In this document: positions 3,148 to 53,809 of the stretch, piece by piece
How positions within the stretch are numbered: position 1 is the stretch's first letter
How the letters are laid out: every line of letters begins with the position of its first letter
Assembly: GCA_000961765.1 (NCBI GenBank)
Contig: LADT01000019.1
Coordinates: 7,110 to 71,109 of the forward strand
Direction of reading: 5' to 3'
DNA length: 64,000 nt
Source of the DNA: Clostridiaceae bacterium BRH_c20a
Lineage (GTDB): Bacteria > Bacillota > Peptococcia > Peptococcales > BICA1-8
The notes under the pieces: model-generated
Told to the model about the DNA's origin: nothing
The model's input: only the letters and a program-made list of their open reading frames with translations
Databases searched by the model: none
Position numbers and translations under genes: made by a program

Positions 3148-4164
3148 ATGGAAAAGGTATTAGTTTCAGATTTGGTACAAGCTCTTGACACTATAACGGG
3201 AGGGAGGTTGCCTAAAACTATTAGTGAGATGTACAATTCACAAAATCCTTTTGTTGTGGTGAAATCTTCAAATTTACCTGGTAAAGCTATAACAGAGACC
3301 CCGGGGCTGGTATTTGGAGACCCAGAAATGGAAATCAAAAAGATTGCAGTAATGATGACTATGACTGAGTCGGCAATTGAACTGGCAGGTTCCACAGATG
3401 TTAATGCAATATTAGCACACCATCCTATAGCAGATGCAGCTAATTCTGGTGGAGTTCTAATTAAGACCTACCTTGGCCTGTATAAAATTGCAGCATTGGA
3501 ACTTCACGAAGCATTTCACGGATTACATCCAGGTATTTCCTATATTCATGGACATTCTGCTTATCGTGTAGAAGTTGGCTACGGGGGAGTTTCGGGAAAT
3601 ATACTCTATGTGGGTAAGGCATTGGATGAAGTAAAAACTTTAGGAGATATATTGGATAGAATTAAAGACTTCATGAATATCGATGCTGAAACAGAATTTC
3701 TGAAAGCTGAGAAGGAAATAAGAAGCTGTGTAGAAATTGAAGAAACAAGTGTAGCAGTTCAAGGGGAGATTCTTCTAGGTACTAGGGCGAGTAAAGTGGA
3801 AAATATACTCCATATATTTCCTCATACTGGCTTTAGCCCTCAGCATCTGGAAAATGTAATGCGGGAAAATCCTGAAATTGATACTATCTTGGCATCAATC
3901 AGTAGGGTTAAATCTGATAATCCATTAGTAATTAAAGCTAAGGAATTAGGGCTAAATTTCATTGTCGGTAATCCCCATTCTCTTGAAATATTTGAAAATG
4001 GACTGCCACTAGCAAGGGCTATTAAAACCCTTTTACCTTCACTTGAAGTTGTAATCTTTAGGGAAAGAATGTGTTCAGTTCCTATTGATAAATTTGGAAG
4101 TGAGAGTATCCAGAAATATGCAGATATGATTACAGAAAAGTTCTTACTTAAAACAAAAAAATAG
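3148..4164 (+). CDS. NIF3-like metal-binding protein (tentative)
   Basis: 338-aa ORF with SD AAGGGAGG; AILAHHPIAD and HEAFHGLHPG histidine motifs resemble the NIF3 dinuclear-metal family. Confidence 0.5.
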   Translation: MEKVLVSDLVQALDTITGGRLPKTISEMYNSQNPFVVVKSSNLPGKAITETPGLVFGDPEMEIKKIAVMMTMTESAIELAGSTDVNAILAHHPIADAANSGGVLIKTYLGLYKIAALELHEAFHGLHPGISYIHGHSAYRVEVGYGGVSGNILYVGKALDEVKTLGDILDRIKDFMNIDAETEFLKAEKEIRSCVEIEETSVAVQGEILLGTRASKVENILHIFPHTGFSPQHLENVMRENPEIDTILASISRVKSDNPLVIKAKELGLNFIVGNPHSLEIFENGLPLARAIKTLLPSLEVVIFRERMCSVPIDKFGSESIQKYADMITEKFLLKTKK

Positions 4165-4250
4165 AAGGGAGGTATTAATTAGGTATTAAGTTATAAATTT
4201 ATTTTTCATAACTTTCGTATCTTAGTAAAAAAATTAAAGGAGGAATTCAA

Positions 4251-5342
4251 ATGTCGAAAATTGAAACTGAAGTAACGACAACTAGCAGAAAAACCATATC
4301 AGGTATTGAGTATGTTGGCTTAAGTCTAGTAGGATTATCACTAATAGGTTTGTTTTTCGGATCTAATCATATAGCTGGAATGTTCGATGCAATGGTAAAC
4401 AAAGCATTTGGTATCTTTAATGTTTTTATCTTTGGTAAGAACATTGGGGCCGCTATTATAGTCAGCGTAATGACTGGCCGAATTCTTGAAAGGTTAGGAT
4501 TTACAGATGCTTTAATGAGATTATTTGTTCCAATATTAAAGTTCATAGGTATTAACTCTGCTGTTGTGGTCCCAGGTGTTTACAATATATTAGGAGACGT
4601 AAATGCAGCAGGCCGTATTGCAGGACCTGTTCTCATAAAAGCGGGAGCTACTAAAGATGAACAAAAGATAGCTATTGCCACAATGGTACAGGCTCCAGCA
4701 TCATTTTCTATTTTCATGTTAGGTATGCTGGCTCTAAGTATGGCAGGTATTAGTGTATTTCCTGTTGTTATTATTACCTTATTTCTTCCCTTGGTTTTAG
4801 TACCTTTCATATTAAAATTTATCTGGAGAGATACAAAAGCAATTACACTAGATAATTTGCCAAGGTTCACTCCAACTACTCCTGCTCTTCCTACAATCTT
4901 TAATGCAGCAAGGGAAGGTGCAGAACTTCTCTTCCTATTAATAATTCCTGCAGCTGTTGTAATATTCGCAATCATAGGTGCATTAGAATACATTGGCATC
5001 TGGCAATATGCACAAGGCTTTCTAAATAGTGTTATGGGAGTTTTGAAAATTGAACCTATAACCGGTGCTTTGACAATATTGGTTTCTAACACCCTAGCAA
5101 TGGGAACTCTGGTTGCAAATTTAAAAGAAGCAGCAATTGCTCCGGCACTTGTTCTTGGTTCCTTTGTTTTGGCTAACTCAGGTTTCCCCCTTCAGGTTCC
5201 CTTTGGTCAGATTCCTGCAGTATGGGCAAATGTTACAGATCTTAATGAAAAAGAAGCTATGCAAGCAGCCGTTGTAGGTGTGCTGATAAGATTATTGACT
5301 GCAACACTTTGTGCATATTTATTGACTCCGCTGGTAAGTTAG
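4251..5342 (+). CDS. multi-pass membrane protein, family not recognised
   Basis: 363-aa ORF with SD AAAGGAGG; about 9-10 hydrophobic segments. Confidence 0.7.
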   Translation: MSKIETEVTTTSRKTISGIEYVGLSLVGLSLIGLFFGSNHIAGMFDAMVNKAFGIFNVFIFGKNIGAAIIVSVMTGRILERLGFTDALMRLFVPILKFIGINSAVVVPGVYNILGDVNAAGRIAGPVLIKAGATKDEQKIAIATMVQAPASFSIFMLGMLALSMAGISVFPVVIITLFLPLVLVPFILKFIWRDTKAITLDNLPRFTPTTPALPTIFNAAREGAELLFLLIIPAAVVIFAIIGALEYIGIWQYAQGFLNSVMGVLKIEPITGALTILVSNTLAMGTLVANLKEAAIAPALVLGSFVLANSGFPLQVPFGQIPAVWANVTDLNEKEAMQAAVVGVLIRLLTATLCAYLLTPLVS

Positions 5343-5410: not shown

Positions 5411-6106
5411 CTAAGACATAAAGAATTTATAACCAGCACCTTTAATAGTCTTTATATAGATAGGGTGGGGGGGGTCTTTTTCGATTTTCCTCCGGATATT
5501 GCTGATGTGAACCATTACGGTTCGGTGATCTCCAAGACTTTCCATACCCCAAAGTGATTGAAACAGCTGCTCGCTGCTAAATACGGTATTAGGGTTTTGA
5601 GCTAATAATGCCAGAAGTTGAAATTCCTTAGGGGATAAAGTGACAGGTTTTTCATTTACCATAACTGATAAACTTATTAAGTCTATAGTTAAGCCCGGAT
5701 ATGTTAAGAGCTTATCGGAACTATTTGTTCTTTTTAACATTCGGCTTCTGCGTAAATGAGCTTTTACCCTTGCCAAGAGTTCCAATGCATCAAATGGTTT
5801 ACTTATGTAGTCATCTCCGCCGGCTGTCAGACCCATGGATTTTTCTATTGGTGTCCCTTTACAACTGAGGAAAATAATAGGTGTTGTTAGCTGTTTGCGA
5901 ATTTCTTGGCAAACCTCAATTCCGTCTAGCCCTGGCAGCATCATATCCAGGATAATTAAATCTGGATTGGCGGTGAGGGCATTTGCTATTGCTTGGTGTC
6001 CGTCCGAAGCTATAATTACTTGATAGCTTTCCTTTTCTAAATATAGAGTAAGTATTTCTCTGATATCCTCATCATCATCAACTATTAGTATTGTTTCCCC
6101 TGCCAA
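5411..6106 (-). CDS. OmpR/PhoB-family response regulator
   Basis: 231 aa; TTG start 7 nt after GAGGAGG; receiver domain (ILIVDDDEDI, DLIILDMMLPGLDG) plus winged-helix output domain (TVMVHISNIRRKIE, IKTIKGAGYKF). Confidence 0.93.
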   Translation of the reverse strand: MAGETILIVDDDEDIREILTLYLEKESYQVIIASDGHQAIANALTANPDLIILDMMLPGLDGIEVCQEIRKQLTTPIIFLSCKGTPIEKSMGLTAGGDDYISKPFDALELLARVKAHLRRSRMLKRTNSSDKLLTYPGLTIDLISLSVMVNEKPVTLSPKEFQLLALLAQNPNTVFSSEQLFQSLWGMESLGDHRTVMVHISNIRRKIEKDPPHPIYIKTIKGAGYKFFMS

Positions 6107-6148: not shown

Positions 6149-6318
6149 TTACCTTTCAACCCATATTTGCCTACCCTGGTATTCTACAATTTCCTTGGCG
6201 GTAGCTAAGCCTAGACCGCTGCTTTTGTGACTAGAAGTCTTACTTTAGACACTTTATAGAAAAGATCAAATATATGAGGTAAATCTTTTTCGGGAATTCC
6301 TATTCCTGTATCTTGGCA
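6149..6318 (-). pseudogene. histidine kinase remnant (C-terminal HATPase_c fragment only)
   Basis: Minus-strand translation gives DTGIGIPEKDLPHIFDLFYKV. After a frame change it gives GLGLATAKEIVEYQGRQIWVER-stop. There is a stop 3 codons upstream of DTGIG and no HisKA or sensor coding upstream. Confidence 0.8.
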
Positions 6319-6510
6319 TCTTTAACTTTTAAAGAATATTTAAGGTTTACTTAAGGTTGTGTTGAAGCTCTAAGCTATCATTTAAGAGTAAAATATTTAT
6401 ATATAAAACATTTCGCTATTGTCGTCATAATTCCTTTTGTTTTGGTGTTTAATATCAAAATTTGTCGCATTTAAAGAATTCTTAAACAATAAAGGAAAGG
6501 AGCATATATT

Positions 6511-6696
6511 ATGTTAGTACTAGGTAGAAGACCGGGTGAGTATATTGTAATTAACGATTCTATTATCGTAAAAGTAGTTAAAAGTGAAAATGGTGATTTA
6601 AGGCTGGCAATCGAAGCACCTCAGGAAATAAATATAGTCCGAGGAGAAATTTATGAAGAGCAAGAAGATGAAAGAGGGAAGAAAGAGGCGTGTTAA
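6511..6696 (+). CDS. csrA: carbon storage regulator CsrA (copy 1)
   Basis: 61 aa MLVLGRRPGEYIVI..VKVV..LAIEAPQEINIVRGEIYE, canonical CsrA signature; SD AAAGGAAAGGAG. Confidence 0.93.
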   Translation: MLVLGRRPGEYIVINDSIIVKVVKSENGDLRLAIEAPQEINIVRGEIYEEQEDERGKKEAC

Positions 6697-6837
6697 TTTT
6701 AATTAAAAAATACGGTCTCTAATATAAGTTGAGTTTTTATTTTTGAACTATTAACGAGAAAACCTGTTCTTCGGAAGGTCTTGAAAGAGATGACAGGTTG
6801 CTTGTGAAAATAGTTCTATTTTTTTAAAAAAATACTC

Positions 6838-6864
6838 TAAAGTTTTTCAAAAAACTAACGATAT
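6838..6864 (+). promoter_or_regulatory. sigma-D/sigma-28-type promoter candidate
   Basis: TAAA-N15-AACGATAT versus consensus TAAA-N15-GCCGATAT (10 of 12 positions, exact 15-nt spacer). Confidence 0.55.
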
Positions 6865-6915
6865 AATTAGTAACGGATTATACTATCAATTAGAATTAAA
6901 TACTTAGTACCCAAG

Positions 6916-6986
6916 GACGATTTTGTTAGGTCTTACTTTCTTTGCAGGAGGCAAAGAGGTAGGTAATAGCAAATCGTCTTTTTTTT
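6916..6986 (+). promoter_or_regulatory. terminator-like long hairpin carrying a GGA-loop hairpin (CsrA-site-like)
   Basis: Outer stem GACGATTT (6916-6923) / AAATCGTC (6971-6978) followed by T8; nested CTTTGC-AGGAG-GCAAAG (6940-6956). Confidence 0.6.
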
Positions 6987-7043
6987 ATTCCAGAGAAAGC
7001 TAAAAATACTCAAACAAAAATAACTTCAAGGGGGAAAGACAAA

Positions 7044-7217
7044 ATGTTGGTACTTGGTAGAAAGCCTGGGGAGTATGTAATGATAGGAGAAAATATTAAG
7101 GTTAAGGTAGTGAAAAGTGATAAGGGAGCCTTGCGTTTTGCCATTGAAGCTCCCAAAGATGTAAGCATTGTCAGGGGTGAGGTTTATGAGGCCAAAAGAC
7201 TAGCTGAAGAAGCCTAG
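7044..7217 (+). CDS. csrA: carbon storage regulator CsrA (copy 2; below the ORF-track length cutoff)
   Basis: 57 aa MLVLGRKPGEYVMIGENIKVKVVKSDKGALRFAIEAPKDVSIVRGEVYEAKRLAEEA; SD AAGGGGGA. Confidence 0.9.
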   Translation: MLVLGRKPGEYVMIGENIKVKVVKSDKGALRFAIEAPKDVSIVRGEVYEAKRLAEEA

Positions 7218-7258
7218 GAAGAAATTTGAGACATTAGAATAAATTGATGTGATTTCAG

Positions 7259-7318
7259 GGACGAGTAATTATCTTATTCAGCAGGATGCTGTAAAAGGGA
7301 TAATTTACTCGTCCTTTT
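7259..7318 (+). promoter_or_regulatory. second terminator-like hairpin with nested GGA-loop hairpin
   Basis: GGACGAGTAATTATC / GATAATTTACTCGTCC outer stem then TTTT; nested CAGC-AGGAT-GCTG (7279-7291). Confidence 0.55.
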
Positions 7319-7372
7319 AAATCTATATTTCCCCATATAAGTCAAGGTGGCCATAGGCTTATTGAGGAACAA

Positions 7373-7422
7373 TTTTTGCGAAAAAGGATGTTCGCAAAAA
7401 AAAACAAAAAAAACAGGGAGGA
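7373..7422 (+). promoter_or_regulatory. flagellin mRNA leader with two CsrA-type sites
   Basis: Hairpin TTTTTGCGAA-AAAGGATG-TTCGCAAAAA (7373-7400, GGA in loop) plus SD AGGGAGGA (7415-7422); same two-site layout as the B. subtilis hag leader. Confidence 0.6.
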
Positions 7423-7429
7423 ATTATTA

Positions 7430-10400
7430 ATGAGAATTAACAACAACTTAATGGCAATGAATACCCATCGTCAGTTGGGTATGAACCAAGCAGGTGGTGC
7501 CAAATCTTTAGAAAAGCTTTCATCAGGCTTAAGGATTAACAGAGCTGGTGATGATGCGGCAGGCTTGGCAATCAGTGAAAAAATGAGAGGTCAGATTCGG
7601 GGCTTGAACCAGGCTACAAGAAATGCCCAAGATGGTATTTCTCTAATTCAAACTGCAGAAGGTGCTTTACAAGAAACCCATGCTATTTTACAGAGAATGA
7701 GAGAATTGGGAGTGCAGGCAGGTACAGATGTAGTTACTGATTCTGACAGGCAAAATATTCAATCTGAGATTGATCAGCTAACTAATGAAATCTCAAGGAT
7801 TTCAAACACTACCGAGTTTAACCAGAATAATTTATTAGCCGGTGGATTTAATGACAAAAGTGTTCTGATTGGTGCAAACCAGGGTCAAAACGTTTCTTTT
7901 TCTATTGGCAAGATGGATGCTAAGAGTTTAGGTGTAACTAGCGATGTAATTACCGCAAATATCGCAAATGATTCAGCAGGAATTAGTGCTGCCGTTCTTC
8001 GTGATGGCACTGGAGCAGCTCAATATGCAGGTCAAACTATAGGAATCACAAGTACACTCTTGCAAGCTGATAGCGCTGGTCAACTACAGGGTTCTAGTGC
8101 CGCCCAAACTATCAATGATGCTCAAGCAGCAGAAGCCGTTGCAACAGCTGTTTTTGGTGCAGGTGCGGATGCAACTTCAGCGAGCATTAATGCATATAAG
8201 GCAATGAATACAGCTGCCACCTATGCAACTGGAACAATTGATGCTAGCAGTAATGGTACTTTGACTGCGGCTAGTCAAGCTACTTATGTGACTGGAGCTA
8301 TTGATGCAAATGCTTTAACAGATGCTACAGATCAAGTATTTACATTTACCATGGAAGGTGTAAACGGTGGAAATGGCGTAGGAGTTGCCTTTGATATTAC
8401 TGTTACTGCTGGTACTGATTGGACTCAAGGCGTTGACCAGGATACAGATGGTGCAAGTTTAGCAGCTGCGCTACAACTTAAACTTTCTGGTAAGGTGGGT
8501 GAGTCTGTAACGGTTGACTACGATAGTGGCAATGACACATTAACTTTTACTAGAGGTGTAACAGGCGACAATAATTTAATAACATTAACAAATGTTACAG
8601 ATAATGGAGCCGGAGTTGCAGCTTTTACTACAGATGGTGTAGCTGCGGACGGTACCAACGGGACAACAACATTTAACTTCACCATGGCAGGCGTAAACGG
8701 TGGAAATGGCGTAGGTGCTGCTTTTAATGTTACTCTTACTGAAGGTGTCGATTGGACCCAGAATGGTGTTCAAGATGATTCTGGCACCTCCCTAGCTGCT
8801 GCCCTATCAACTAAACTTTCTGCAATTGCGGGTCAGGCTATAACTGCCAATTATGATACTGCTACTGATGCTATGACTTTCACTACAGCCCAAAAAGGCA
8901 GCGACCAGTCAATTGTACTAAACTCAGTTACTAATGAAGCAACTGCTACTGTAGCAGGATTTACTGAAGGTGTAGCAGCTACTGCTGGTACAGGTACAGG
9001 CTCTGTTGATGGTACCGGCTACGGCGTGGTCAGAATGAGCATTGATGATACCGCCTTTAATGTTACTATTAATGAAAGTTCGACACTAGCCAATGTGTTA
9101 GATAATATCAATTCTGCAGCTAATACTGCTTTAGGAACTACTGGCGTAACCTATGCTAGTGAGGACACGGGTAGTATAGTTATTACTTCAAATACCGACA
9201 GCACTGGTTCTTCAGTTAAAATTATCGGCGACTTTGAGTCTGATGGTACAACTTCCGCTAACGGTGCCCTTTTGCAAAACTTAGGTCTTTCTCTTAGTGC
9301 TACTAGTCAGACAGGGATGTCCGATGTAGGAGCAAGTGGAACAGCAGGAACATTTAGCTTAACTGTAAATGGTACTTCCTTTGATGTTACACTCCAAGAT
9401 GGTGATGATATTGACGCTGTGACAACAGCTATAAATGCTGCTGCTGAAACTGCCGGCGTTATCGATAATGGTGATGCGTTGGCTGCTAATGATGGTACAA
9501 TAATTACTTTAACTTCTTCTGATGTAAAAACCGGAGCTGGGACTGGCTCAAATGCCAATATCATTATTGGAGAAGACGATAATGGGGGTAAAACTTTAGC
9601 AGCACTAGGACTTACTTCAGGAACATATGGGGGTGCAGATGCTACTTCCGGTTCTTTAAGGATAGCTATCGATGGTACTGAATTTTCAGTAGGGTTAACT
9701 GATGGAAGTGATGCAACTGCTGTAGCCAATGCTATTAATGCTTCTGCTAATACCGCCCTTGGAACCTCAAGTCAGAACTATGCCTCAGTTAGTCAAGGAA
9801 AATTAGTTATTGAATCTCTTACTTCTGGAAGTAATTCTTCAGTAGGAATTTTAAATGATAATACCTCCGGTAGGACTATTGAAGCCTTAGGCTTACAAGT
9901 GGGAACAGTCTCAGGAGCAAACACGGGGCAATTACAGGTTGTTGCTTCTGTAGGTGGGGCTTCAGAAAGTGTAGCAATTGATACGAATGCAGATATAATT
10001 AAATTTAGTCAGGCTTTTGCAGGCTTAACCTTAACAAAAGATGCTGCCCATAATACAGCTGGAACTGCTGATATTGCAACTTCTGTTTTAAAGTCAGAAG
10101 CAGCTGCTATGACTACTGACGGACGTATTAAATCAGAAGCTAGTGTACAAAAGGGTATACTAGTGGATACAGCAGACGCTGCCAACAAAGCGGTTACAGC
10201 GATAAATAATGCAATAGCTAGTGTGTCTGATCAACGCTCAGCTTTAGGTGCTTTACAAAATAGATTAGAGCATACTATTAGCAACTTGGGTGCATCAGCT
10301 GAAAACTTACAAGCTGCTGAATCTCGAGTCAGAGATGTGGACATGGCTGCCGAAATGATGCAGTTCACTAAGAATAATATCCTGCAACAAGCAGCAACTG

Positions 10401-10456
10401 CAATGCTGGCTCAAGCAAACCAAGCACCACAAGGAGTACTGCAGCTTCTTAGATAA
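7430..10456 (+). CDS. fliC: giant flagellin (1008 aa)
   Basis: ATG 7430 with a good SD; the ORF-track TTG 7376 lies inside the leader hairpin. N-terminal MRINNNLMAMNTHRQL..LRINRAGDDAAGLAISEKMR. C-terminal LGALQNRLEHTISNL..MAAEMMQFTKNNILQQAATAMLAQANQAPQGVLQLLR. About 730-aa Thr/Ala/Gly-rich insert. Confidence 0.95.
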   Translation: MRINNNLMAMNTHRQLGMNQAGGAKSLEKLSSGLRINRAGDDAAGLAISEKMRGQIRGLNQATRNAQDGISLIQTAEGALQETHAILQRMRELGVQAGTDVVTDSDRQNIQSEIDQLTNEISRISNTTEFNQNNLLAGGFNDKSVLIGANQGQNVSFSIGKMDAKSLGVTSDVITANIANDSAGISAAVLRDGTGAAQYAGQTIGITSTLLQADSAGQLQGSSAAQTINDAQAAEAVATAVFGAGADATSASINAYKAMNTAATYATGTIDASSNGTLTAASQATYVTGAIDANALTDATDQVFTFTMEGVNGGNGVGVAFDITVTAGTDWTQGVDQDTDGASLAAALQLKLSGKVGESVTVDYDSGNDTLTFTRGVTGDNNLITLTNVTDNGAGVAAFTTDGVAADGTNGTTTFNFTMAGVNGGNGVGAAFNVTLTEGVDWTQNGVQDDSGTSLAAALSTKLSAIAGQAITANYDTATDAMTFTTAQKGSDQSIVLNSVTNEATATVAGFTEGVAATAGTGTGSVDGTGYGVVRMSIDDTAFNVTINESSTLANVLDNINSAANTALGTTGVTYASEDTGSIVITSNTDSTGSSVKIIGDFESDGTTSANGALLQNLGLSLSATSQTGMSDVGASGTAGTFSLTVNGTSFDVTLQDGDDIDAVTTAINAAAETAGVIDNGDALAANDGTIITLTSSDVKTGAGTGSNANIIIGEDDNGGKTLAALGLTSGTYGGADATSGSLRIAIDGTEFSVGLTDGSDATAVANAINASANTALGTSSQNYASVSQGKLVIESLTSGSNSSVGILNDNTSGRTIEALGLQVGTVSGANTGQLQVVASVGGASESVAIDTNADIIKFSQAFAGLTLTKDAAHNTAGTADIATSVLKSEAAAMTTDGRIKSEASVQKGILVDTADAANKAVTAINNAIASVSDQRSALGALQNRLEHTISNLGASAENLQAAESRVRDVDMAAEMMQFTKNNILQQAATAMLAQANQAPQGVLQLLR
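8336..9001 (+). repeat. intragenic tandem duplication, two ~111-aa units in the flagellin variable region
   Basis: FTMEGVNGGNGVGVAFDITVTAGTDWTQ versus FTMAGVNGGNGVGAAFNVTLTEGVDWTQ; period 333 nt. Confidence 0.85.
9026..10040 (+). repeat. three to four ~90-aa flagellin-IN-motif-like units
   Basis: MSIDDTAFNVTI.., LTVNGTSFDVTL.., IAIDGTEFSVGL.., VAIDTNADIIKF.. Each is followed by ..A..IN..A.. and ..LGL.. patterns. Confidence 0.65.
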
Positions 10457-51957: not shown

Positions 51958-52289
51958 ATGAAGAATATTATTAAAGCAAACTCAAGAATGGGGAAACAGT
52001 AGTAGGTTCAATCATATCTGTTAATTCTCCTGATATTGTGGAAGTATATGACTTATCACAATCTTTAGGAATTCCCGGTCAAATGGGTCATCCTTTGTTG
52101 GAAGAAAAAATAGTATGGTCATTAGATGTTATAAAGGAGGCAGGATTAATAGCGGGGATTTTTACCAGTAGTTTTGTTGAGGATGCACAACAAAGAATTA
52201 AACAGGGTTTTCGATATATTTTATATAGTATGGATACTATTATGCTTAGTAAAATAGCCCGATCTGAACTGAGTCGGCTTAGAAATTAA
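51958..52289 (+). pseudogene. HpcH/HpaI-family aldolase remnant (frameshift plus internal deletion)
   Basis: ATG 51958 with SD AGGAGG reads MKNIIKANSRMGKQ-stop. A shifted frame gives SKLKNGETVVGSIISVNSPDIVEVY joined directly to DLSQSLGIPGQMGHPLLEEKI..., the C-terminal third of the fold. About 150 aa of the barrel are missing. Confidence 0.75.
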
Positions 52290-52384: not shown

Positions 52385-53809
52385 GTGAAAAGGATCCAGA
52401 AAAATATGAATTTGTTTTTCCTTTTAGGCACAAGTATTTTGGCAATAGTAGGTTTGATATTTTTAAGTATTGCCAGCCAATTGATATGGTTAAAATATGC
52501 CAGTTTGGTAGGGGTCGTATTTGTAGTTATCTATAATTTATACCTGTATAAGTTCCTTTTTCACCCAGTAAAACTTATGACTGATACATTGGAAGAGGTG
52601 GAAAATGGTAAGGTTGGTACACGCAATAGGAATACAAACCTAATAAAGTGTTGGCAGGAATTAAATTGTCAGAAAAATGACTGTGTAGGCTATGAAAATG
52701 AAAATTTACGATGCTGGGAGTTAACTGGAACTCGATGTAAAGACCAAACTAAAGACCAAACTCAGGGAACCATTGTGGAAAAACTAAAGGAATGTAAAGA
52801 CTGTGTTGTTTATAATAAATCAGCTAAAGGTGAAATTGGAAATATGGCAAGGCTTTTGGATAATATATTGGCTATTACTGGCGGAGTATTGGCCCAGATA
52901 AAATTCTCCTCCCAGGAGCTGGGTCAAGTAAATCAGGCTTTAGGTGTGAGCTCTAAGGCTTCTCTTTCTGCAACTAAAGAAATAAACAGTTCTTTGGGGG
53001 AAACTGCAAAAATGACAACTAATCAGGTTTCCGCTGCGGAAGATATGCATCATTTTGCAAATAAACTTGCGGAGATTGTTTATAATCTGGACGTTAACTC
53101 TCAAGATATTACAAATTTTTGCCAAGAAACAAGTAAGGATAATGCTAAGGTAGCCTCGTCTGTTAATAATTTGTTGGTTAATGCTGGTGAAACCAAAAAA
53201 TATGCTGATCATACAGTGGAAAAGATGACGGCGTTACGGGATAAATCAGGTGCTATTAATACTATAGTATCTACAATAAATAATATTGCAGATCAAACCA
53301 ATCTTTTAGCTCTAAATGCCAGTATTGAGGCTGCTCGGGCTGGAGAGCATGGGCGGGGTTTTAGTGTAGTTGCTGAGGAAATACGAAAGTTATCGGAAGA
53401 GACAGCAAAGTCTGTTACTGAGATAAAGGGTATAGTCATCGGTATGGGTAATGAAATGGATGAGACGATAAAAGTAGTAAATTCTACTATGGGTATTATT
53501 GAGGTGCAAAATAATAAGATAAATGAGACCGGAACATATTTTAGAACAATGGAAGCAAAGGTGAACCAAGTTGTAAATAACATTAATAATTTACGTAACA
53601 GTATAGAATTGATAGAAAAGGAGCAGAAGGGTTTTTTAGTAAAAATAGAAGAAGTAGTATCGGTTTCCGAAGAAATAACTGCGGCTACTCAGGAAATTCT
53701 AGGTAGTACCCAAGATCAGGAAGATGGCCTAACTGTTGTTGGAGAGCAGATTGGTAGACTGGATAAAGTAATTAAAGAATTGGATACATATGCTCGTTTT
53801 TTTAAATAA
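52385..53809 (+). CDS. methyl-accepting chemotaxis protein with Cys-rich (two CW) module
   Basis: 474 aa, GTG start; two N-terminal TM helices; [34 protein letters not shown]; signalling domain [37 protein letters not shown]. Confidence 0.9.

Follow-up and report, generated by a model that had tools for sequence, protein, structure and literature searches.

A conserved csrA-linked terminator hairpin with two GGA motifs in a sigma-D-type flagellin cassette: a candidate CsrA-responsive leader

A 64-kb stretch of DNA from Clostridiaceae bacterium BRH_c20a (hereafter the window) was analysed around positions 6838-6986, where the initial annotation had placed a short sigma-D-driven RNA displaying three GGA motifs for CsrA. 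At the centre of this segment lies a dual-GGA terminator hairpin, termed here copy 1 (6909-6986, + strand), which consists of an interrupted stem of ∼25-30 bp followed by a U8 run and is situated between a sigma-D/sigma-28-type promoter and the csrA2 gene (7044-7217, + strand). Judged from its conservation, the hairpin appears to belong to a widespread, apparently undescribed class of cis-regulatory RNA. With about even confidence, we favour a model in which it acts as a CsrA-responsive conditional terminator, a leader switch for self-sensing by CsrA, rather than as a stand-alone decoy.

A hairpin family with two conserved GGA motifs

The long hairpin of copy 1 extends over 6913-6981 and has a calculated folding energy of −30.2 kcal/mol. 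When the segment 6870-6990 was folded as a whole, the energy was −31.4 kcal/mol (z = −3.85), and none of 200 shuffled sequences folded as well. The outer stem, formed by GACGATTT and AAATCGTC, comprises 8 bp and is directly followed by the U8 tract (6979-6986, + strand; T8 in the DNA). The intrinsic terminator-like hairpin of the initial annotation is indeed present, and termination is predicted at the U8 run. A terminator scan by built-in rules missed copy 1, as these rules disallow a long interrupted stem, and folding and covariation were relied on instead. Small open reading frames (ORFs) of 22-26 aa with TTG starts within the hairpin were judged not credible.

All three of the GGA motifs noted initially are present, namely ACGGAT at 6873-6878, AAGGAC at 6913-6918 and an apical AGGAG at 6946-6950, but only the latter two (GGA at 6915-6917 and 6947-6949) are conserved in the family described below. 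The first of the conserved pair, site 1 (CsrA-type motif CAAGGACGA, 6912-6920, + strand), makes up the first six pairs of the copy 1 stem, so that its GGA is paired at the very base of the stem. Its core, CAAGGACG, is identical to that of BS1 in the Bacillus subtilis hag leader, as read from locus L081 (3326-3341). Site 2 is an apical stem-loop (CUUUGC-AGGAG-GCAAAG, 6940-6956, + strand) with its GGA 32 nt after that of site 1. The earlier description of a loop-exposed motif holds for site 2, whose GGA is in a loop closed by G-C pairs; the site 1 GGA is paired. The remaining motif (6875-6877) falls in an AU-rich 5' leader segment (6871-6911, + strand) that, in the alignment, is conserved in the nearest relatives only, and this GGA is common to the nearest relatives L001 and L002 and missing in L005 and most other loci.

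Homologous loci were gathered by a scan with CsrA2 as the query, taking one genome per species, which gave 80 loci (Bacilli, Clostridia and Negativicutes). The nearest ones come from Peptococcaceae/Peptococcales assemblies, and the alignment shows that the hairpin is kept in L001, L002 and L005 with compensatory changes in the stem. A simple pattern, GGACG..GCAGGA.GC..TTTT, recovered ∼50 copies in ∼35 loci, all on the csrA strand, and a covariance model, R1, was built from 44 pattern-found copies. R1 identified 137 copies on the csrA strand; they are spread over 71 of the 81 sources (the window and the 80 loci), most sources having two or three. The hosts include Clostridium, Desulfosporosinus, Paenibacillus, Cohnella, several Bacillaceae, Sporosarcina, Sporomusa and others. 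Cultured carriers of the cassette include Clostridium ljungdahlii (L025), C. drakei (L010), C. ragsdalei (L004) and C. tetanomorphum (L021), besides Desulfosporosinus, Sporomusa and Paenibacillus. A second model, R2, was built without the window and without its three closest relatives. In the window R2 found exactly two elements, copy 1 at 6909-6984 (56.1 bits, E ∼5e-12, the model E-values being rough) and copy 2 at 7253-7318 (51.1 bits); the next + strand match scored 12.3 bits. The R1 scores of the two copies were 64.4 and 59.6 bits, respectively. The window therefore holds everything by which the family is defined: a covarying hairpin of ∼75 nt, the dual GGA, a U-rich tract and a short csrA gene on the same strand within 450 nt.

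In the model-fitted alignment of the copies, 95.2% of stem cells are paired compared with 75.3% after shuffling, and there are 434 double-change cells compared with 128. The covariation score of 0.609 (0.243 in shuffled alignments) was not reached by any of 500 shuffles, and slid controls gave 0.05-0.15. A MAFFT alignment of the seeds displayed the same compensatory changes. G-U pairs are common and the model scores far lower on the minus strand, which indicates that the structure is an RNA on the csrA strand. A DNA inverted repeat or invertible promoter, as found at hin-linked csrA loci (PMC13418256), was considered and rejected on these same two grounds and because the promoter lies outside the repeat.

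The anatomy of the family centres on the two GGA sites. At the 5' base of the hairpin the motif C-A-N-G-G-A-N-G-A is found, with the GGA in 135, the next G in all and the following A in 129 of the 137 copies. The bases of site 1 are paired in 97% of cells, the base after the GGA covaries with its partner, and the 3' partners of the two G residues of the GGA are almost only C or U; the site 1 GGA must therefore be paired in the folded terminator hairpin. At the apex, a G-C closed A-G-G-A-N loop is present in ∼130 of the 137 copies, and the apical stem covaries with double-sided changes at all five of its pairs. The two GGAs are 24-35 nt apart (median 31 nt). The stem is immediately followed by a U-rich tail with a median of 6-7 T in 9 nt, which is seen in every positional class, including upstream tandem copies. 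The GGA motifs are best described as genuine CsrA-type sites, to which CsrA is predicted to bind.

That copy 1 should be an ordinary terminator bearing GGA motifs by chance is extremely improbable. GGA triplets are common, and the promoter pattern on its own is non-significant in the window; against this, in 137 copies the two GGAs hardly vary and keep their place in the structure while the surrounding stems covary freely, and the elements are exclusively csrA-linked.

In Rfam 15, nothing reached the gathering score in the window, and only noise was returned at E-values up to 10 within 6300-7500. Among 16 homologous loci, no Rfam match covered the element, the only matches being to group I introns in two flagellin genes. 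These intron matches lie in or next to the flagellin genes of two Bacillaceae loci, L056 (2982-3330, 93 bits) and L073 (5413-5754, 75 bits). No description of the element was found in Rfam 15 or in a full-text literature search, the coverage of which mostly excluded subscription journals.

Near-identical arrangements of promoter, tandem hairpins and csrA were observed across Domibacillus, Lederbergia, Paenibacillus, Sporosarcina and Cohnella (L008, L011, L015, L016, L022, L028, L037, L038, L044 and L070, at ∼3700-4200 in each). This near-identity across genera suggests horizontal transfer of the whole flagellin cassette. In L008, the csrA-proximal hairpin (3889-3964) is exactly duplicated after csrA at 4306-4381 and is followed there by a fragment of the csrA 3' end, which looks like a recombination or duplication scar.

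Position of the element and its probable transcription with csrA2

Three positional classes of the hairpin were distinguished. In the first (57 copies), the U-run ends 17-62 nt before the csrA start codon; the second (42 copies) is located at a greater distance upstream, mostly as the leading member of a tandem pair; and the third (36 copies) is found 3-60 nt after the csrA stop codon and ∼85-140 nt before the flagellin start. No copy in the 64-kb window or in the 8-kb loci lies anywhere other than next to a csrA or flagellin gene. Metagenome contigs were also scanned with the RNA pattern alone, with linkage defined as a csrA gene within 450 nt on the same strand. Of 35 matches, all 17 that scored at least 38 bits were csrA-linked and none of the other 18 were, ten of these having no model hit and eight scoring 14-36 bits; 18 csrA-free matches is about the number expected by chance. 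The two best of these eight, L094 (1258-1333) and L111 (1188-1253), both from one sample, score 31-36 bits and have no csrA near them. Each falls within an ORF on the opposite strand, and both probably arose by chance.

The promoter upstream of copy 1 occupies 6838-6864 (+ strand) and comprises a −35 element TAAA (6838-6841), a 15-nt spacer and a −10 element AACGATAT (6857-6864), from which a transcription start near 6871 is predicted. Compared with the sigma-D/sigma-28 (FliA) consensus, which has a GCCGATAT-like −10 element, the −35 element agrees at 4 of 4 and the −10 element at 6 of 8 positions, including the CGATAT core. The pattern by itself is non-significant in the window (two matches, with 1.5 expected), and the significance of the promoter therefore comes from a comparative position weight matrix (PWM) only. 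This PWM, derived from 32 homologous promoters and hence from training sites of the same class as the site tested, gave 29.0 at 6838, the top score on both strands of the 64 kb, the runner-up scoring 16.2. The runner-up (52191-52222) is located ∼190 nt upstream of a gene for a methyl-accepting chemotaxis protein (52385-53809), a typical member of the flagellar regulon, and this match provides an internal check of the matrix in this genome.

Comparison of the loci bears out the TAAA-N15-AACGATAT promoter proposed in the initial annotation, since its position is conserved. The promoter is kept in the alignment of L001, L002 and L005, and in 52 loci a loose pattern (TAAA, 16-18 nt, CGA[TA]A) has a match 51-160 nt upstream of a hairpin copy, 34 of these matches having the canonical spacing TAAA-N17-CGATA. 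The matches nearly always precede the hairpin copy that comes first in a locus, and none precedes a post-csrA copy. The distance from promoter to hairpin is only ∼25 nt in most other loci.

In the window, 57 nt separate the U-run of copy 1 from the csrA2 ATG, and no sigma-70-like or sigma-D-like site was found on the + strand in 6987-7043. As the gaps of 17-62 nt between U-run and ATG leave no space for a promoter, csrA2 would be transcribed through the hairpin. The segment 6838-6986 may well represent, on an even estimate, the beginning of a sigma-D-type unit (promoter plus ∼115 nt of transcript) that continues into csrA2. The ribosome-binding region of csrA2, UUCAAGGGGGAA (7025-7036, + strand), resembles the flagellin BS2 site (UUCAGGGAGGAA) and is likely to be a third CsrA site, serving translational autorepression. 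Indeed, all 57 unique spacers between U-run and csrA contain a GGA within 25 nt of the ATG, 36 of them with CA(N)GGA or ANGGAG, and their ribosome-binding sites resemble flagellin BS2, UUCAAGGAGGA.

Downstream of csrA2, copy 2 (7253-7318, + strand) carries CAGGGACGA at its base, an apex CAGC-AGGAU-GCUG and a weaker U4 tail. It lies between csrA2 and the flagellin gene and is kept in L001, L002 and L005. No sigma-D PWM match and no YCGATW core were found in the gap 7218-7429. Across the loci, a PWM match is absent from the gap in 55 of the 56 cases in which flagellin directly follows csrA, whereas such a match lies 130-290 nt upstream of 8 of the 19 flagellin genes that no csrA precedes. The YCGATW test, which is independent of the −35 element, gave a similar result: the core is absent from 43 of 45 gaps downstream of an element-bearing csrA, and the canonical fliW-csrA-hag loci (L081 and L082 of B. 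subtilis, L056 and L048) have CCGATA in the csrA-hag gap and no element. TATAAA-like boxes in other clades were considered as flagellin promoters and rejected, as they are the 3' arm of a small leader hairpin.

We conclude from this comparison that the sigma-D promoter, the hairpin or hairpins, csrA, the further hairpin and the flagellin leader would form one transcription unit, of which flagellin is probably the last gene. In effect, csrA and the hairpins seem to have been inserted between the flagellin promoter and the flagellin leader.

The flagellin leader (7337-7422, + strand) was delineated by alignment and by comparison with other flagellin leaders and B. subtilis hag. It comprises a 5' stem-loop (7337-7362), a BS1-like hairpin GCGAAAAAGGAUGUUCGC (7378-7395) and a BS2-like Shine-Dalgarno (SD) sequence CAGGGAGGA (7414-7422). 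The small 5' hairpin, AUAAGUC-[AAGGUGGCCAUA]-GGCUUAU, lies just upstream of the BS1 hairpin. Related small hairpins precede BS1 in most loci, with the loop GUGGCCAU in Desulfosporosinus and Sporomusa loci, and at flagellin genes without csrA they are downstream of a sigma-D-type promoter and are therefore transcribed. The small hairpin seems to correspond to the 5' stem-loop of the hag leader in B. subtilis (L081, ∼3285-3308).

The product of csrA2 (57 aa; Pfam CsrA, 1.9e-21) belongs to a short, tail-less CsrA subfamily with the signature MLVLGRKPGEY...LRLAI.AP...RGE, and has R44, the key RNA-binding residue of CsrA (PMC7652899). The element-linked CsrAs and the paired upstream ones (such as that encoded by csrA1, 6511-6696) have 47-69 aa, are tail-less and often occur as tandem pairs, whereas fliW-linked CsrAs have 74-78 aa with a long C-terminal tail. 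Control of CsrA by FliW reportedly depends on the tail in B. subtilis and Geobacillus. By analogy, loss of the tail may have removed the short CsrAs from FliW control. A tblastn search with B. subtilis FliW as the query detected no fliW in the 64 kb, a result that is limited to this stretch of the genome, and fliW does not adjoin the element-linked csrA genes.

These data bear directly on the Csr/Rsm-type sponge that the initial annotation had put first, namely a sigma-D-driven, terminated RNA of ∼115 nt that titrates the short tail-less CsrAs in trans; on this reading, the leaky terminator would do no more than fix how much decoy RNA is made per csrA2 mRNA, as in type III toxin-antitoxin operons. 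We consider such a decoy unlikely. It would make sense of a transcript that has its own promoter and U8 terminator, is insulated from csrA1 by a separate terminator, and offers two CsrA sites of high-affinity type, plus one extra GGA in the window clade. The linked CsrAs of 47-69 aa lack the tail of their fliW-linked relatives and no fliW is present in the window or adjoining these csrA genes, so that an RNA antagonist would fill a gap, and sigma-D timing would free flagellin translation when it is needed. However, conservation extends to only two GGAs, and as one of these is base-paired, the mature RNA would expose essentially one conserved site. Moreover, each upstream tandem copy still ends in a U-run, for which a sponge of several hairpins would have no use, a promoterless copy of the hairpin is also present after csrA, and csrA2, with no room for a promoter of its own, would depend on read-through for its expression. 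Finally, no copies away from csrA were found in the window, the loci or the metagenome scan, and the element has no likeness to the CsrB/Rsm models. The leader or attenuator for csrA2, which had been offered as the alternative, is the better-supported reading.

Models for the action of CsrA at the hairpin

In the conditional terminator model, the outcome would depend on whether free CsrA meets the nascent leader. Left to fold freely, the RNA would form the hairpin, polymerase would halt at the U8 run and an RNA of ∼115 nt would be released. In the presence of free CsrA, one dimer, caught by the apical loop, would reach across to the 5' site while the 3' arm of the nascent RNA was yet to be made. 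The bridged dimer would hold the base of the stem open, leaving UCGUC between the remaining stem and the U-run, and polymerase would then continue into csrA2. Copy 2 (7253-7318) would repeat the same decision ahead of the flagellin gene, and through the BS2-like ribosome-binding sites of csrA2 and flagellin CsrA would limit translation too. The direction of the effect, read-through upon CsrA binding, is a prediction of this model. When the hairpin was folded with CA-N-GGA-N-GA constrained to be single-stranded, the stem end moved from 6981 to 6973 at a cost of ∼10 kcal/mol, and UCGUC was left before the U-run.

Several observations are consistent with this model. As the U-run, even in upstream tandem copies, and both GGAs are jointly conserved, CsrA binding and termination would appear to be coupled. 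A single CsrA dimer can bridge sites 10-63 nt apart (PMC7652899), and the median spacing of 31 nt falls within this range. In the pgaA leader, CsrA bound at two sites prevents the formation of a hairpin (PMC4052769; PMC7652899), and binding of CsrA to two GGA stem-loops is established for the B. subtilis hag leader (PMC13443453; PMC7652899). As in an attenuation leader, an intrinsic terminator separates the promoter from the first ORF, no second promoter was recognized in between, and the predicted regulator site overlaps an arm of the terminator; a conserved alternative RNA structure is missing. Positive feedback of this kind would be sensible if the CsrA of the cassette commits the cell to one flagellin among several, as has been suggested for csrA-linked flagellin loci of gut Clostridia (PMC13418256).

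CsrA could also act with the opposite sign, promoting or stabilizing termination when bound to the hairpin. Under this scheme, which we regard as quite unlikely, csrA2 would be under negative autoregulation and flagellin would be repressed in both transcription and translation. Such an arrangement would fit the flagellin homeostasis of B. subtilis, in which free CsrA means no flagellin (PMC13443453; PMC7652899), as well as the usually negative sign of CsrA autoregulation (PMC7652899), and the BS2-like ribosome-binding site of csrA2 likewise implies autorepression. It is difficult to reconcile with the position of site 1, which overlaps the terminator stem itself and not an antiterminator, there being no conserved competing structure. 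Binding to a paired GGA should weaken the stem, and the base and apex of an intact helix of ∼25 bp would be too distant for one dimer, given the size of the CsrA dimer.

The hairpins might alternatively serve in processing or stability. Here the long hairpins around csrA2 would be sites of cleavage or protection, for example by RNase III, splitting a short-lived csrA segment from a stable flagellin mRNA, with the GGAs mainly anchoring repression at the BS2-like sites. Stems of ∼25-30 bp exceed what a terminator needs and are constant in length, the hairpins bracket csrA, and the flagellin leader has a 5' stem-loop like that with which canonical sigma-D flagellin transcripts start. A link between an RNase III-processed leader and CsrA is on record for pnp, in work cited within PMC7652899. 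What such a role does not explain is the conserved U-run after every copy, or the position of the 5' GGA in the last base pairs beside the U-run. In the window, furthermore, the apical GGA is 86 nt from the SD GGA of csrA2 (7033-7035), beyond the bridging range of 10-63 nt; in Clostridium loci the hand-counted distance is ∼55 nt. Processing is, on balance, very unlikely to be the main function.

Conditional termination by CsrA nevertheless has a number of points against it. No conserved RNA antiterminator was found in the family, and the leader upstream of the hairpin is unconserved and only ∼20 nt long in many loci, so that the switch would have to be purely protein-driven. The physiology fits CsrA-promoted termination or a decoy at least as well: if the cassette CsrAs are sequestered when flagellin is needed, as in the B. 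subtilis FliW circuit, CsrA-dependent read-through would cut flagellin mRNA at just that time. That the stems are far longer than a terminator needs suggests a further or another function, RNase III processing for example. The flagellin gene may have a promoter of unrecognized type; downstream of copy 2, the window clade shares a conserved CTATAWAT box. In addition, the 80 loci were gathered via csrA similarity, a bias only partly removed by the metagenome scan, and the alignment behind the covariation counts was fitted to the model, so that pairing is somewhat overestimated.

Known regulators and the surrounding genes

CsrA is among the most widespread post-transcriptional regulators. To our knowledge, the only established input to CsrA in Firmicutes is FliW, and the only well-studied target is the flagellin leader. 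The element described here points to a second, RNA-level layer of CsrA control in sigma-D flagellin cassettes of many genera.

The closest likeness to a characterized CsrA target is with the hag leader of B. subtilis, in which a BS1 hairpin is combined with BS2 over the Shine-Dalgarno sequence (Yakhnin et al., 2007; summarized in PMC7652899 and PMC13443453). The two share a sigma-D promoter, a GGA in a hairpin loop and, at site 1, the BS1 core; the ribosome-binding sites of csrA2 and flagellin resemble BS2, and in both systems there are two sites ∼23-32 nt apart. The hag leader differs in having no terminator, in acting on translation only and in preceding flagellin rather than csrA, and R1 finds nothing in the B. 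subtilis locus (best score 11.7 bits). Likewise, CsrA of Escherichia coli binds its own leader, including the ribosome-binding site (Yakhnin et al., 2011; summarized in PMC7652899), but in that case there are four sites, the repression is translational only and no terminator hairpin is present. In the pgaA leader (PMC4052769), binding of CsrA causes termination by means of Rho and rut sites, whereas in the window the hairpin itself serves as the predicted intrinsic terminator, and CsrA bound to it should counteract termination. If CsrA does control the terminator, no earlier example of its direct action on intrinsic termination is known to us, and the arrangement would constitute an autoregulatory loop able to lock in or balance one flagellin among several.

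LicT/SacY-RAT, HutP, PyrR and TRAP-trp are protein-mediated attenuation and antitermination leaders of Firmicutes. With these the element shares a protein site over the 5' part of an intrinsic terminator, placed between the promoter and the first gene, and occupancy of the site would decide read-through. Here, however, the protein is a different one, there is no conserved RAT-like hairpin or antiterminator, and the regulator is encoded by the controlled gene.

The CsrB/CsrC/RsmX/Y/Z RNAs of Gammaproteobacteria (Rfam clan CL00106) resemble the element in being short, non-coding and intrinsically terminated, with GGA in loops, and the element too would bind CsrA. Known Csr/Rsm sponges expose many GGAs, and they are products of unlinked genes driven by BarA-UvrY/GacSA; the element in the window has two conserved GGAs (one buried), a sigma-D-type promoter and an obligate cis link to csrA. 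Although the element has its own promoter and terminator, as an independent Csr/Rsm gene should, csrA2 has no recognizable promoter in the 57-nt gap. The CsrB model of Rfam gives 9.4 bits (gathering score 71), and that match is at 7146-7321.

Type III toxin-antitoxin operons such as toxIN consist of a protein-binding RNA, a leaky terminator and a protein gene. They offer an architectural analogy for the decoy only, as there is no protein-processed repeat array here and CsrA is not a nuclease toxin. That the terminated leader RNA is an antagonist of CsrA in Bacillota, paired in cis with short tail-less CsrAs and with the terminator fixing the ratio of decoy to CsrA, is a possibility to which we give little weight. 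If true, RNA control of CsrA would extend beyond Proteobacteria and would coexist with FliW in Gram-positive bacteria, on mobile flagellin cassettes, and titration of CsrA by the terminated RNA would settle the old question of Gram-positive RNA antagonists of CsrA.

The csrA-tldR-fliC loci of gut Clostridia (PMC13418256) also have an extra csrA by a flagellin gene; a FliA-dependent promoter precedes this csrA, and the flagellin 5' untranslated region carries a CsrA motif in a stem-loop. TldR guide RNAs and hin inversions are described there, but no dual-GGA terminator hairpin. The element is short and well defined, and it offers an annotation marker for csrA-flagellin cassettes.

The csrA1 gene (61 aa) is the first of two csrA genes in the region. 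Its unit is ended by a terminator-like long hairpin (6745-6816) with a U-run UAUUUUUUU, as seen in a fold of 6697-6840; this feature (6745-6827, + strand) separates csrA1 from the promoter at 6838, which is thus placed between two terminators. The loop region of the csrA1 hairpin contains CGGAAGG, yet the structure does not match the family model. The flagellin cassette is isolated, with no other flagellar genes seen nearby in the 64 kb. An OmpR-type response regulator is encoded at 5411-6106 on the strand opposite to the csrA genes. The flagellin gene (7430-10456, + strand) encodes a protein of 1008 aa with Pfam Flagellin_N and Flagellin_C domains, which is unusually long; the homologue in L002 has 1161 aa.

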